64,000 nt of DNA from Octopus vulgaris (Eukaryota), in contig OX597834.1 in the NCBI GenBank assembly GCA_951406725.2, forward strand, positions 46,810,001 through 46,874,000, in the 5' to 3' direction. The notes under the pieces were generated by a model that saw only the letters and a program-made list of their open reading frames with translations, searched no databases and was not told the origin of the DNA. The first letter of the stretch is position 1; every line of letters begins with the position of its first letter. Made by a program: the position numbers and the translations under genes. This document shows positions 22,429 through 59,277 of this stretch, in pieces.

Positions 22429-23293
22429 TATATGCATATATTTTATTAACATATTATACGACTAAACGCACGCACCCTATTAAGTAAGATTGTTCTGTTT
22501 ATCAAGTTCGCCTTGATATTAACTCTCACGCGACTCTGCATCTTTCTTTCTTTCTTTCTCTCCCATTCCCTTTTTTCGTCTTTTTTCCCTCACTTAACTT
22601 GTCTCTTCCTCTCTCTCTCCCCCTCACTGTTCTTCATGGTCTCCTCGCACCATTCCCCTTCTTCTCTCTCTTCCTCTTGCTCCTCCTCCCCCTTTCCCGT
22701 CGTCCATCTGCGACGTACTTCCGTCGTAACTGCTGTCCCGTCCTTTCTTGCCTGCCTTCTAAGGCCACTGGTCGACATCTTCCTCTCTCGTCGTCCACTA
22801 TAATCCAGCGTTTGCAATACTTTTTTCGTCTGGCGTTAACAGCCCTTCTTATCTTGTTCTCCTTGTCCTGTCTCTCACTGTTATATATTTATTTTTCCAC
22901 TGTTTATATATATATTTTTTACTGTTTATATGTTTGTACTGTCGTTACCGTCTTGCTTTTTTTTACCCCTCTGCGACAAGATCTCAGAATTTTAATTGAT
23001 TTGCTTTTCGCGGGAAGGAATTTTTCATTCGAAGTATACGTCTCGCTTTTATCCTTCGAAACGTTTAGTAGATGAAACTTTAGCGACTGAAGAAGGGGAT
23101 TTTTCGTTGTGCTTATTGTCCTGTATCTCCTTTTTTTGCTTGTCTTGTTCCTTGGTTTGTGTCTATGTTTTTCGTCTCTCTATGTGTTCGACGTCCTTTT
23201 GGTGTCCTGTACACATATATGCGTGTATATGTACATGTAGAGGTAGGTACGTACATATATGTTTATATATATGCATATATTTTATTAACATAT
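22429..23293 (+). mobile_element. Putative non-autonomous Penelope-like element
   Basis: Direct repeat TATATGCATATATTTTATTAACATAT at both ends within (AT)n; CpG-rich interior; hammerhead-like motif at 23051-23100. Confidence 0.55.
23051..23100 (+). ncRNA. Permuted (type II-like) minimal hammerhead-like motif
   Basis: ATCCTT-C-GAAACGTT-(21 nt)-CTGAAGA-A-GGGGAT; ATCCTT pairs with GGGGAT (two G-U pairs). Confidence 0.45.
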
Positions 23294-23734
23294 ATATATA
23301 TATATATATATATATATATTTTTGTCCCCCCCACCATCGCTTGACAACCAATGTCGGTGTGTTTATGTCCCTGTAACTTAGCCGTTCAGCAAAAAGGACT
23401 AATAGAATAAGTATTAGGCTTACAAGGAATAAGTCATGGGAGTGATTTCTTTGACTAATAGGTGGTGCTCTAGCTTGGCTACAGTCAAAATGACTGAAAC
23501 AAGTAAAAGAATAGAAGAATATATATCATCATCATCATCATCATCATCGTTTAGCGTCCGTTTTCCATGCTAGCATGGGTTGGACGGTTCTACTGGGGTC
23601 TGTGAAGCCAGAAGGCTTCATCAGGCCCAGTCAAATCTGGCAGTGTTTCTACGGCTGGATGCCCTTCCTAACGCCAACCACTCCGTGAGTGTAGTGGGTG
23701 CTTTTTACGTGCCAATATATATATATATATATAT

Positions 23735-23977
23735 ACCGGAGTAAACACATAAATGTGAAACAAGGTGGAAAAAAGACTACTCAAATACCAGTGGTAGAGT
23801 AATATGCTTTATTTAAAGCAGCAGAAAATTCAACAAAACCTGTTACTCTGAGTTTACCGTTGCCGTTCATCGGACACTTTTTGCTAGAATTCTAGCAAAA
23901 ACTGTTCGATGAACGGCAACTGAAAACTCAGAGTAACAGGTTTTGTTGAAATTTCTGCTGCTTTAAATAAAGTATAT
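23735..23977. mobile_element. Fold-back element with two inverted hammerhead-like motifs
   Basis: Imperfect palindrome ~23802-23977 centred on GAATTC (23887-23892); (AT)n on both sides. Confidence 0.75.
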
Positions 23978-24614
23978 ATATATATATATATGTATGTATA
24001 TATGTATATGTATATATGCACACACACACACACACACACACACACACTCATGTGCAAAACAGGCTTCTTTCAGTTTCTGTTTACCAAATCCGGTCACAAG
24101 TATAATTGTATATTTATGTATATTTATACATATGCTTGCATTTACAATATAAAAACAGCAGTTTTATACGCATGTATTTATAGAAACTTGTGCACTTGGT
24201 GTGTATTTTTATCTACAAAATGCATCACCTGTTCAAAGGAGGGCCAATGTGCTATATTACCAGTTTAGAGAACCAGATACCAGACCACCCCCACTTCTTG
24301 CAACAGTCACCTCTATCTCTGATGTAACAGTGTGATACCACTTTATACAACACATGCTGAGAAAATAGTTCAGATATAATTGTCGTTAATAAAGGTTTCG
24401 GAGCTGATGAAGCAGTTAGGAATTCTGAAATTCAGCACCAATTAAATAAGATTTTCGTTTACTAAAACAGCATGCAAAGCTTGTTGTTGTTGTGTGTGTT
24501 TATGGGTATGTATACTTAAATATATCTATATGTATATGTGTGACTGAAGTCGCATGGCTGAAATGAGTAAAAGAGTAAATATATATATATATATATATAT
24601 ATATATATAGTCAC

Positions 24615-25000
24615 AGGAGTGGGTGTGTGGTAAGTAGCTTGCTTACCAACAACATGATTCCAGGTTCAGTCCCACTGCGTGGCACCTTGGGCAAGTGTCT
24701 TAACTATAGCCTCGGGATGACCAAAGCCTTGTGAATGGATTTGGTAGACAGAAACTGAAAGAAGCCCATCGTATATATGTGTATATGTGTGTGTGTTTGT
24801 GTGTCTGTGTTAGTCCACCACAACATCGCTTGACAACCGATGCTGGTGTGTTTACATCTCCGTAACTTAGCAGTTCGGCAAAAGAGACCAATAGAATAAG
24901 TACTAGGCTTACAAAGAATAATTCCTCGGGTCGATTTCCTTGACTAAAGGCAGTGCTCCAGCCACAGTCAAATGACTGATACAAGTAAAAGAGTAAAGAG
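24615..25000 (+). mobile_element. SINE family B
   Basis: Full head, microsatellite and tail. Confidence 0.9.
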
Positions 25001-25096
25001 TATATACACACACACACATTCATTATATATACATATATATTATGTATGTATATATGTATACATACATACATATGTATGTAAATGTGTGTGTGTGTA

Positions 25097-56765: not shown

Positions 56766-57125
56766 TATGTATATATATGTGTGTGTGTATGTATATATAT
56801 ATATATGTGTGTGTGTGTGTGTATGTATATATATATATATATATGTGTGTGTGTGTGTATGTATATATATATATATATGTGTGTGTGTGTATATATATAT
56901 ATATATATATATATGTGTGTGTGTGTGTGTGTATGTATATATATATATATATGTATATATATATATATGTGTGTGTGTGTATATATATATATATATATGT
57001 ATATATATATATGTGTGTGTGTGTATGTATATATATATATATATGTATATATATATATATGTGTGTGTGTGTATGTATATATATATATATATATATGTAT
57101 ATGTGTGTGTGTGTGTGTATTATGT
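56766..57125. repeat. Compound (TA)n(TG)n microsatellite
   Basis: Direct inspection. Confidence 0.95.
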
Positions 57126-57484
57126 ATAAATTAAAATTAAAGGAACAGAAAAACAAAACTAAGGCAGGACAAGCTTATCAGATCATTTTAATTATTTTAA
57201 TCATTATAGTGGTGAATCAAAGTAAGTAGACTACAGATCACCAGCTCCAGCCCCTGCTGTGAACTTGGATCCTGGTGACTTATCGATTAGGGCACCTACA
57301 CACCATGTCTATTAGTATGGATCACCAGTGGCCCAAACCCTTTCCTATTCTGTATATTATGTGTGTGTATATACATATGTATGCATGTGTGAGTGTGTGT
57401 GTATATATATATTGTGTATATATATATATATATATATATATATATATATATATTTAAAAAAGGAGATGTGGAACACGAGTTGTG

Positions 57485-57781
57485 ATATATAAAAAAAAAA
57501 GGAAATGAAGAAAATGCTGACAAAATAATTTAAGTAAGGGAGAGTGTATTTAATTAGGTGAAAGTTCTTTTTACCGGTTGCGCATTTGTTATGCTTATCA
57601 AAAGATATTTTTTTCTCTAAGAGAAAAAAATCTATCAGAAAGGAACTCTATCTCTCTTAAAAAATATCTTTTGATAGGCATAACAAATGCGCAACCGGTA
57701 AAAAGAACTTTCACCTAATTAAATACACTCTCCCTTACTTAAATTATTTTGTCAGCATTTTCTTCATTTCCTTTTTATATA
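57485..57781. repeat. Fold-back element, ~125-bp arms, with hammerhead-like variant in both arms
   Basis: Near-exact inverted arms near (AT)n tracts; TTGATA(G/A)-GCAT-AACAA-ATGC-GCAA-CCGG-TA at 57671-57700. Confidence 0.8.
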
Positions 57782-59241
57782 TATATATATATATATATAT
57801 ATATATATATATATAGAGAGAGAGAGAGAGAGAGAGAGAGAGAGAGAGAGAGAGAGAGAGAGGCACAGGTTATATATATGGTTTCAGGTTCAGTCCTACT
57901 GTGTGATACCCTGGACAAAGTGTCTTCTGCTACAGCACGAGCCAAGCAGAATTTAAAGAAGTCTGCCGTGTGTATGTGTGTGTATACACACACTTATGCA
58001 CATCATCATCATCATCATTATTTTATGTCCACTTTTGGTGCTAGCATTGTTTTGATGGTTCATGTCATGGTTCTACTCATATGTCGTTGGGAGTGACTGT
58101 TCCTATCAAGTGACACTTGTGTCATTTGATGTAGTTTCAGGAATTTAGGAATAGGGGTTCAATTGCACTGACCTGGTACTTCATAAGTGCTATCTTTTAT
58201 CAACCCTGCCCCACCCAGAGATGAAAGATAAAGGGATCTCAGTACTTCACTGGTCAGTAGCAGGATTACTCATTTTAGCCAACTAAGTGGACTAGAGCAG
58301 TATGAAATGAAGTGCTTTGCTCAAGAACACAATGCATCACCTGGTCCAGGAATTGAAACCACAATCTTACAATCATAAGTCCAGTGCCCTAACCACTAAG
58401 CCACACACATCCACTCAGATTGTAAAAAGCTAGAAGAAATACAGAAGAGCATTATGTTGGATGTTCTATCAATTCTGCATATTCTTCAGCACAAGTAATT
58501 GTTTCTAGTAAAGACATTAAATCAGAAAAACATGGTGGGAGGTGTTAGATGATTACATTAAATCTCAGTAATTAATTGTTGATTTATTTTATTGACCCTG
58601 AAAAGATAAACACCAAAGGTGACCTTGATAAGATTTGAACTCAGTATACGTGTGTGTTTGTGCTTCTTCATCTTGACATTGTGCAATAGTTGTCGACAAA
58701 GGTTGGTGATGGGAAAGGCATCCAATTCCAGAAAACCTGCCTCAGTGAATTCTGTTCAATCCATGCAAGCATGGAAAAAGGATATTAAAACAATGATATA
58801 TGTGTGTGTGTGTTGGTCTTTGCTAGTGCAGCCTGACTGGCACCCGTGCTGGTGGCACGTAAAAAGTACCACTCAAGCATGGCGATGCCAGTGCTGCTTG
58901 ACTGGTCCCATGCTGGTGGCACATAAAAAGCACCATTCAGGCGTGGTTGTTGCCAGTGCCACCTGACTAGCTCCCATGCCAACAGCACATAAAACCACCC
59001 ACTATACACTCGGAGTGGTTGGCATTAGGAAGGGCATCCAGCTGTAGAAACTTTGCTAGATCAGATTGAAGCTTGGTGCAGCCTTCTGGCTTGCCAGCCC
59101 CCAGTCAAACTGTCCAACCCATGTTAGCATGGAAAGCGGATGTTAAACAATGATTATATATATATATATAATATATATATAGTTCAAATTTACAGAAAAC
59201 AAAAGATGAAGACAAAAGATGCTCGTAAAGAATGGAAAAGT

Positions 59242-59277
59242 CTTTGATGTTTCGAACCTATGCCCTTCGACAGAAAG
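59242..59277 (-). ncRNA. Minimal hammerhead-like motif with CUGUCGA core
   Basis: Minus strand CTTT-CTGTCGA-A-GGGC-ATAG-GTTC-GAAAC-ATC-AAAG, ~60 nt from an (AT)n junction. Confidence 0.55.

Follow-up and report, generated by a model that had tools for sequence, protein, structure and literature searches.

What accounts for the hammerhead-like ribozyme motifs, many of them in fold-backs beside (AT)n tracts, that lie within one stretch of the Octopus vulgaris genome? The stretch, here called the window, comprises 64,000 nucleotides of contig OX597834.1 (positions 46,810,001 to 46,874,000). The original prediction named ten loci and proposed that non-coding, ribozyme-bearing Penelope derivatives, often reduced to an inverted ribozyme pair, are mobilized into AT microsatellites. 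Our reading is that the motifs are probably the 3' terminal hammerheads of several Penelope-like element (PLE) families, left as 5'-truncated insertions. The families concerned are most likely Hydra-like, Neptune-like, and shorter minimal types.

Hammerhead-like letters are present at all ten loci, but as hammerheads the loci are unequal: three show a perfect type I core, two depart from it by a single change, one is permuted, and four are decayed. The type I descriptor specified a stem I of at least 3 bp, a stem II of at least 4 bp, CUGANGA or UUGANAA, GAAA, and UH. With it, perfect cores were found in the window at 39312, 43308, and 51366; the last (51366-51404, plus strand) is a U3-A8 variant with stem III GCGC. 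Single core changes occur at 26609 (U4C) and at 59242-59277 on the minus strand (A6U), the latter a minimal type I hammerhead whose 4-nt stem III is not palindromic. A further type I hammerhead had been missed by the original prediction: 2481-2531 (plus strand), with one core change (G8A without U3) and a 9-nt stem III. The motif at 23051-23100 (plus strand), a single copy within the window, fits solely a permuted (type II order) descriptor; it has perfect core letters, a stem II of 6 bp, and three of four stem I pairs. The remaining four loci fail the strict type I descriptor; they are decayed and likely inactive. Specifically, the 23840/23902 pair has at least two core changes and a broken stem II, 41008 combines a disrupted stem I with a long loop II, 41873-41917 (plus strand) has G8C and a broken stem II, and the 57671 pair has A13C and a stem I of only 2 bp. 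Stem III, supposedly self-complementary in almost all cases, reads as such at seven of the ten loci, the exceptions being 41008, 43308, and 59242. Likewise, the proposed density of one motif per 6-7 kb holds (about 1 per 6 kb) when decayed relics are counted, whereas perfect cores occur once per 21 kb.

AT-rich, hairpin-rich DNA could generate look-alikes, and many of the sites might have arisen in this way by chance. We regard that as very unlikely. Measured against 135 block-wise dinucleotide shuffles of the window, the three perfect cores compare with a mean of 0.18, and none of the shuffles reaches three. Four matches combine a palindromic stem III with at most one core change (0.19 expected), again equaled by none of the 135. 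Among all matches with at most one change, 12 were observed and 5.4 expected, a count that 1 of 135 shuffles reaches; about 5 of these 12 are thus what random sequence would supply. Matches with up to two changes stand at the shuffle level (73 against 65.5; 29 of 135 shuffles reach that), and this class is therefore not enriched. The comparison with shuffled sequence, itself part of the original prediction, thus bears out the perfect and the palindromic one-change cores and not the two-change class. For 23051, 0 of 197 shuffles give a perfect-core match to the permuted descriptor, which was written after the site had been seen. Also on the side of chance, an Rfam scan of the window returned no hammerhead among the best 150 of 280 rows, and a covariance model built from 13 relatives of the window's PLE (see below), which at E<0.05 detected just 5 of 13 ribozymes held out from it, placed no window site at E<0.2. 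The listed Rfam rows are nearly all microsatellite-driven microRNA matches. The model's best window match, 8177-8220 (E 0.26), is by inspection no hammerhead. Monomer folding z-scores are unremarkable for all 12 motifs folded. Against chance, decayed sites have fold-back anatomy, AT polarity, or family stem III letters in common, and one family (Family A, below) is multicopy with every core position constant except U4. For the single sites 23051, 41873, 59242, and 28258, a chance origin is plausible.

The arrangement of the motifs is informative. Five of the nine local fold-backs in the window contain listed motifs, and these account for five of the ten loci, so the estimate that about half lie in inverted repeats was right. 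In the head-to-head fold-back at 23802-23977, whose arms are 93% identical around a palindromic center, decayed hammerheads on the minus (23841-23882) and plus (23902-23940) strands both point outward. Decayed, outward-pointing motifs, both with A13C, also occupy the head-to-head fold-back at 57455-57788 (minus 57568-57606, plus 57667-57705); its paired part, 57485-57788, is 89% identical overall with nearly identical outer arms, (AT)n lies on both sides, and about 35 extra bases, resembling a PLE "tail," are found at the left end only. The arms at 43200-43386 are 95% identical over 43200-43345; the plus arm has the perfect-core ribozyme (43308-43386), with a long stem II and a non-palindromic stem III, and the minus arm ends inside loop II. 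An old fold-back at 40901-41107 (arms 75%) has its hammerhead, from 41008, in the plus arm and only the ribozyme 3' half in the minus arm. A candidate half-ribozyme pair is found at 28258-28468 (arms 77%): the arms show GAAA, a stem-III-like stretch that is palindromic in the plus arm, and UA, and they end at short AT runs, but neither a stem I nor a stem II is valid. No complete ribozyme is present in the fold-backs at 5610, 48127, and 49018. The original prediction noted that minimal hammerheads in Penelope-like terminal repeats, direct or inverted, are thought to act as dimers. Because the arms lie on opposite strands and are predicted by folding to form one long hairpin, the inverted pair is not the dimeric form.

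The (AT)n tracts lie mostly 3' of the ribozyme. Of 13 window arms, 8 have an (AT)n run of at least four units within 150 nt on the downstream side and 3 have one on the upstream side, with a background of 0.156. The plus arm of the 23802-23977 fold-back stops at (AT)n 33 nt past its motif, (AT)5 follows the 41008 motif by 39 nt, and (AT)n follows 59242 by 62 nt. At 2481 the nearest long tract is upstream, and 41873 has none within 400 nt. That most loci are near (AT)n was borne out in the list itself, with at least five units within 150 nt at 6 of 10 loci (background 0.22, p about 0.01), but among 2481, 26609, 39312, 43308, and 51366 the figure is just 2 of 5, and the original choice of sites may favor AT-adjacent ones.

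Short elements with long inverted repeats and TA flanks also describe MITEs, and three of the nine fold-backs have no recognizable ribozyme. If the fold-backs were MITEs or DNA-transposon relics, their terminal inverted repeats would merely happen to include ribozyme-like letters. The anatomy makes this extremely unlikely: the repeats span nearly the whole element, the arm ends are unequal (the 43200 arm ending within loop II, the extra tail at 57455), and the same families also occur as unpaired copies (39312). Unequal arms and unpaired copies are as expected for inverted PLE copies, not for terminal inverted repeats.

A coding PLE is present in the window. The ORF at 49178-50159 (plus strand) begins after a short (AT)n, is 5'-truncated, and is interrupted close to its end by a tandem duplication of 23 nt. 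It encodes an RT thumb, a CX4CXXC linker, and a GIY-YIG endonuclease with CCHH, the arrangement of the Neptune/Nematis type (RT, then GIY-YIG with a CX2-5CXXC linker and CCHH). It is 57-61% identical to the top RT plus GIY-YIG proteins, and the Cys/His residues are invariant in 29 rows; the Pfam GIY-YIG match is below cutoff (19.7 versus 22.6 bits). No relative was found in viral contigs. We scanned 81 loci encoding relatives of this ORF, leaving out 3 further genome loci. The same ribozyme design occurs downstream of these PLE ORFs: of 28 perfect-core matches, 20 are on the sense strand downstream of the ORF match, and the reversed control gave 1. In all 13 aligned rows of the relatives, stem III is a palindrome and shows two-sided changes, a count that is partly circular because the rows were picked by the descriptor and for a 4-nt loop. 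An (AT)n run of at least four units lies within 130 nt downstream of the ribozyme in 8 of 22 relatives.

Does the 51366 ribozyme belong to this ORF? Its strand and type are as expected, it shares stem III GCGC with one relative (L002), and it is followed by (AT)4 after 26 nt and by a 965-nt (AT)n-rich array after 105 nt. The original prediction of a ribozyme at the 3' end of a Penelope GIY-YIG element was correct about the ORF; the motif, however, stands about 1,200 nt past the stop, compared with 66-513 nt in 19 relatives, so the link is likely at most. Two other PLE ORF relics, at 53447-52972 and 46677-46519, have no clear hammerhead downstream. Downstream of the relic at 53447-52972, a match with one core change (52515-52598) failed to convince.

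Family A shows how such insertions are built. In the window it forms a cluster at 26278-26735, consisting of a plus-strand 3' tail fragment (26278-26335), (AT)10, a minus-strand inverted copy (about 26355-26580) that has an internal deletion and reaches further in the 5' direction, and a 5'-truncated copy with the U4C hammerhead (26609-26663, plus strand). Another plus-strand copy, 39244-39425, is 5'-truncated near 39244 and has the perfect-core hammerhead (39312-39359) and a 3' tail of about 65 nt. The three window copies have three different 5' ends and a fixed 3' end; Family A and the 23902 arm terminate 33-70 nt past the motif at (AT)n. The family is matched in all four sequencing runs examined, which bear four organism labels, by 431, 11, 113, and 72 contigs, whose summed depth we do not take as copy number. 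Depth peaks over the ribozyme 3' half, contigs extend 5' of 39244 with shared letters in three of the four runs, and in two runs loose ends enter (AT)n behind the 3' end. These properties (many copies, ends at (AT)n, different 5' ends) suggest 5'-truncated stubs, often head-to-head, and Family A is best read as truncated copies of a longer element.

The core of Family A is unvarying apart from U4, where C makes up 65-100% of depth. Variation is no less common within the motif (7 of 48 positions) than it is in the flanking sequence (16 of 134). The covariation foreseen in the original prediction is seen in one set and not in the other: Family A variants at 5% or more include one-sided and pair-restoring changes only, with no two-sided compensatory change, whereas the descriptor-selected relatives of the ORF do show two-sided changes. 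Of the four sites whose dimers were predicted, 39312 and 26609 have their lowest-energy homodimer as a double hammerhead, and for 51366 and 2481 a different dimer is predicted to be best. The 41873 motif and Family A agree in their 3' core and stem III. The roughly 190 nt upstream of the Family A ribozyme show no PLE protein similarity by tblastn, C-terminal profile, or Hydra-type peptide motifs; any PLE coding parent is therefore putative. An eye-read PLE C-terminus on the minus strand at 26500-26590 found no support from tblastn or profile.

No ORF was found in that upstream sequence, and Family A is abundant; might some families, Family A above all, be short elements a few hundred bases long, like SINEs or retrozymes, that depend on a PLE protein supplied in trans, with the fold-back pair perhaps the spreading unit? 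In four fold-backs each arm ends either inside the motif or about 15-60 nt from it at most, and animal non-LTR retrozymes, reported as non-autonomous PLE derivatives (10.64898/2026.07.22.740005), resemble the window in their non-coding, PLE-derived type I hammerheads and in having monomer copies (see also PMC7229834). We nonetheless consider this unlikely. Non-LTR retrozymes are defined by head-to-tail tandem units with at least two ribozymes per strand; the window has no such repeats, no tandem array in it contains a hammerhead motif, and its pairs are inverted. The three 5' ends and the shared upstream continuation of Family A count against separate mobilization of non-coding derivatives, which is the doubtful part of the original prediction, although several (AT)n-tied PLE families, often in inverted pairs, are upheld. 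As for a spreading unit, eight of the nine fold-backs have no second copy in the window, each has its own center, and an opposite-strand joint for Family A appears in only one contig. The literature gave no match for a SINE motif. We similarly doubt that octopus genomes hold very-high-copy short non-coding Penelope derivatives, with at least one abundant family whose fixed U4C core CUGANGA searches miss.

The preferred reading, truncated PLE insertions, agrees with known systems. Solitary, heterogeneous, opposite-strand minimal hammerheads of metazoans, "probably related to truncated PLEs," were published by Cervera and De la Pena in 2014 (PMC4209133), who counted about 2,000 + 1,300 in Schistosoma and 9,000 in Xenopus and described the extra base before stem II and the U3-A8 variant. 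Like the window motifs, which share both of those features, these are type I, with short stem I and palindromic stem III, in many unrelated families per genome, mostly solitary and predicted to dimerize, with some opposite-strand pairs 100-700 bp apart. In contrast to our window, their supplement holds no cephalopod (Octopus 0 matches), and the U4C core is absent among those of their aligned rows that we compared. The window density is above what their counts would imply, and it rests on one selected window. Targeting of (TA)n, inverted 5'-truncated copies, and a 30-40 bp tail were published by Craig et al. in 2021 (PMC8557442), including Hydra-1_Obim of Octopus, with a ribozyme near its 3' end, and Penelope-13_HM, whose inverted 5'-truncated copy gives one ribozyme per strand. 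Hydra-clade PLEs share with the window the (TA)n target, the 3' ribozyme, a mismatch flanking stem II, and stem III forms: acta-t-tagt (2481), actc-a-gagt (23902), and acag..ctgt (Family A). By eye against File S2 of that study, the 9-nt stem III of 2481 is like that of Penelope-1_HM. The window motifs differ from the published Hydra-1_Obim ribozyme, none of six is verbatim in that supplement, listed Hydra cores have U4 where Family A mostly has C4, and short peptide motifs revealed no relic of a Hydra ORF (CxCX5C linker, no CCHH) in the window. Neptune/Nematis-type PLEs match the window ORF in the C-terminal GIY-YIG, linker, and CCHH residues, and the 3' ribozymes of the ORF relatives contain the 4-nt palindromes GCGC and CCGG, which also occur at 51366 and 57671; the window copy differs in being truncated and broken, with an unusually long 3' region. 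The evidence supports the presence in the window of PLE minimal hammerheads of several families.

How might such stubs form? The element's GIY-YIG endonuclease would nick (AT)n DNA, and reverse transcription would begin at an RNA position about 30-120 nt 3' of the ribozyme. Because reverse transcription would usually halt early, the commonest product would be a ribozyme plus a short tail ending at (AT)n. Head-to-head fold-backs with both ribozymes pointing outward could arise if a second cDNA were primed at the opposite nick or if the first snapped back, and the stubs would decay afterwards. Cleavage and extension on both strands at AT-rich DNA, with an internal RT start, have been described (PMC11167929); in the one in vitro system, ribozyme cleavage needed protein and was dispensable for insertion. 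In the full-length parent RNA, the ribozyme may cleave as a same-strand dimer via palindromic stem III, or with protein help, and a ribozyme within a fold-back would be trapped in one long hairpin.

Two things are new here, how densely the motifs lie in this region and a family in which the U4C core is in the majority; for the most part, the known Penelope ribozyme pattern is extended to octopus. In the open literature we found cephalopod hammerheads only as Hydra-1_Obim and 235 Rfam hammerheads in giant squid; the octopus families may already be annotated in Repbase, Dfam, or the PMC13282606 supplement. Since its core is mostly U4C, Family A would be missed by standard CUGANGA-based searches. 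Were the doubtful high-copy U4C reading true, cephalopod genomes would rank with the densest in hammerheads known so far, and would let one ask in a natural setting whether PLE transposition selects for an attenuated core. On the preferred reading of truncated PLE insertions, a share of octopus small fold-backs (five of nine here, possibly six) is explained as Penelope 3' stubs, which are open to confusion with MITEs or microRNA hairpins. The AT polarity and tail lengths would offer a genomic readout of where reverse transcription starts, and Family A, with all core positions kept but U4, would be a convenient variant, supplied by nature, with which to ask if cleavage is of consequence.

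The window is repeat-rich animal DNA, and all of it was scanned with a type I descriptor modelled on a published minimal hammerhead; core positions follow hammerhead numbering. The scan returned three perfect cores, at 39312, 43308, and 51366 (the last a U3-A8 variant), and nine one-change matches, including 26609, 59242, and a previously unlisted site, 2481. In 135 local dinucleotide shuffles of the window, perfect cores averaged 0.18, and no shuffle reached three. Likewise, four palindromic cores with at most one change compare with 0.19 in the shuffles, none of which attained four, and all matches with at most one change number 12 versus 5.4. 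Thus, the predicted excess over shuffled DNA holds for these three classes and fails for two-change matches (73 versus 65.5). As for the other listed sites, four do not pass the strict descriptor and are decayed: the 23840/23902 pair, 41008, 41873, and the 57671 pair. The 23051 motif can be fitted only when its two halves are taken in type II order; the corresponding descriptor, written for 23051 itself, matched none of 197 shuffles. The sequence surrounding 23051 (22490-23200) is CpG-rich and pyrimidine-rich, unlike its neighborhood, has no PLE (Penelope-like element) protein match, and is possibly part of another element. Some results speak against the motifs. An Rfam search of the window showed no hammerhead among the best 150 of 280 matches. 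A covariance model from 13 relatives gave no window match below E 0.2, and this model is insensitive, recovering 5 of 13 held-out ribozymes. Monomer folds of the window motifs were unremarkable.

Family A comprises 26609 and 39312, together with a tail fragment (26278) and a copy in inverted orientation that carries a deletion (26355-26580). Contigs were examined from four of 24 listed runs, picked via the Penelope ORF, and 431, 11, 113, and 72 contigs matched. Depth climbs from the 5' flank and peaks over the 3' half of the ribozyme. Loose contig ends 5' of 39244 agree among three runs and, by eye, resemble the further-5' sequence of the inverted window copy; judging by these ends, the 39312 copy is therefore truncated from something longer. 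Since no protein similarity was detected upstream of family A, its parent may be a short non-coding element. Past the 3' end, two of the runs have loose ends that enter (AT)n; in the window, two copies terminate in one common (AT)10. In the ribozyme, 7 of 48 positions vary at 5% or more; in the flanks, 16 of 134 do. Of the seven ribozyme positions, two lie in loop II, one is unpaired, and one is U4; one variant restores a stem II pair, another changes G-C to G-U, and a stem I change, at 7% in one run (X5), is uncompensated. Two-sided compensation was not seen in the contigs of the four runs. C4 makes up 65%, 100%, 76%, and 74% of family A depth (54, 3, 23, and 19 contigs, respectively), and it is also found in each of the two 23840 arms and in L034, a locus carrying a relative of the window ORF. 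The U4C change reportedly reduces activity in vitro but can still support a viroid in vivo (PMC3088659). It does not occur in the rows compared in the PLE ribozyme tables of PMC4209133 and PMC8557442.

The longer stem III of 2481, 23902, and family A matches, by eye, Hydra-clade rows in File S2 of PMC8557442. According to that paper, nearly all Hydra-clade PLEs insert into (TA)n, and Hydra-1_Obim from Octopus is a member. These motifs thus resemble the Hydra clade, and, because no Hydra ORF was found in the window, the assignment signifies resemblance only.

A 5'-truncated PLE protein with RT-thumb, linker, and GIY-YIG parts is encoded at 49178-50159 (+), 57-61% identical to its top full-length matches. 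Its CX4CXXC linker and CCHH residues mark it as Neptune/Nematis type under the criteria of PMC8557442. Among loci encoding relatives, 81 of 84 were scanned, yielding 28 perfect-core matches versus one in reversed sequence; 20 of the 28 lie on the sense strand, 3' of the protein match, and the stop-to-ribozyme gap is 66-513 nt in 19 loci. These ribozymes share the window motif design: stem I is short, stem II has an extra base or mismatch next to it, and the palindromes include GCGC, CCGG, and ACGT. Stem III of 51366 is identical to that of one relative, L002. The original prediction placed a hammerhead at the 3' end of a Penelope GIY-YIG element. The ORF is real; 51366 likely belongs to it, and only likely, because some 1,200 nt, holding a diverged duplication and microsatellites, separate motif and stop.

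The region also holds other repeats. A diverged tandem duplication of ~310 nt (50160-50790), its first unit ending in (AT)n, occupies the Penelope 3' region, and a 23-nt tandem duplication (50028-50090) disrupts the ORF. Outside the window, antisense ribozymes of other families lie just downstream of PLE relatives at L004:1961-2018 (-), L034:2501-2541 (-), and L035:2025-2063 (-), one followed by (AT)n; the L034 motif has C4 and the near-identical L035 motif U4. Animal PLEs in records labelled bacterial symbionts (L081; proteins P0004, P0009, P0016) are probably host contamination. Within the window, two further Penelope-like endonuclease relics, both broken, at 52972-53447 (-) and 46519-46677 (-), belong to one family distinct from the 49178 element; they share ~50 nt past the protein match, then diverge, and neither has a clear ribozyme. 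The former points from the right, and the 49178 element from the left, at a 965-nt (AT)n array (51509-52473). A LINE reverse-transcriptase frame of 692 codons spans 54349-56427 (+). Several LINE fragments that we take to be RTE-type, with a PHD-like finger, lie at 8568-8993, 29393-30952, and 40053-40856; the named nearest matches of one are in Octopus vulgaris (90% over part) and O. bimaculoides.

Motifs were first described as lying often in fold-backs and near (AT)n. Listed motifs occupy five of nine local fold-backs, and a sixth (28258-28468) carries half-motifs. (AT) runs of at least four units lie within 150 nt 3' of 8 of 13 arms and 5' of only 3 of 13, with a one-side expectation of 0.156. 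Because these sites were hand-picked by the earlier reader and the analyst, p-values for them are optimistic. Among the other fold-backs, one at 49018-49169 is perfect (100% arms) and has (AT)17 at its centre; it lies immediately before the truncated ORF, with no ribozyme or match to the 3' end of the 49178 element seen. Single-copy fold-backs at 48127-48250 and 5610-5663 adjoin microsatellites or what are presumably SINEs and lack a complete ribozyme; both arms of the former contain a UUGANGA-like stretch without GAAA.

Much of this pattern has precedent. According to PMC4209133, genomes hold minimal hammerheads by the thousand, heterogeneous and for the most part solitary; it also describes pairs on opposite strands at distances of 100-700 bp, cores of the U3-A8 form, and a connection with truncated PLEs. 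PMC8557442 describes 5'-truncated copies in inverted orientation, tails, and a bias toward (TA)n, octopus families included. The window motifs are therefore added members of known PLE hammerheads. Octopus has ~30 recently active Penelope families (PMC13282606, whose main text does not mention ribozymes). The U4C-majority family and the local hammerhead density, the latter from one selected window, are new, modest additions.

The observation holds in part, and the interpretation of the motifs as ribozyme-bearing PLE derivatives at AT repeats is likewise supported in part. Two head-to-head pairs with outward-facing ribozymes are present (23802-23977 and 57485-57788, the latter with additional bases at one end only). 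Inverted pairs are predicted to fold as single hairpins (-90 to -191 kcal/mol) in which the ribozyme is hidden. By contrast, the best predicted fold for a pair of same-strand copies is a double hammerhead in the case of 39312 or 26609, though not of 51366 or 2481. Given these predictions, an inverted pair is more plausibly a by-product of insertion than the dimer. The protein of the one PLE that has been reconstituted cleaves AT-rich target DNA on both strands and extends both; reverse transcription begins inside the RNA at two sites downstream of the ribozyme, and their spacing accounts for a 30-40 bp tail (PMC11167929). On the most likely reading, reverse transcription that ended early would most often leave behind a ribozyme and a short tail next to (AT)n. 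Snap-back could be one route to inverted pairs, and it, or a second cDNA, may have generated the two head-to-head pairs.
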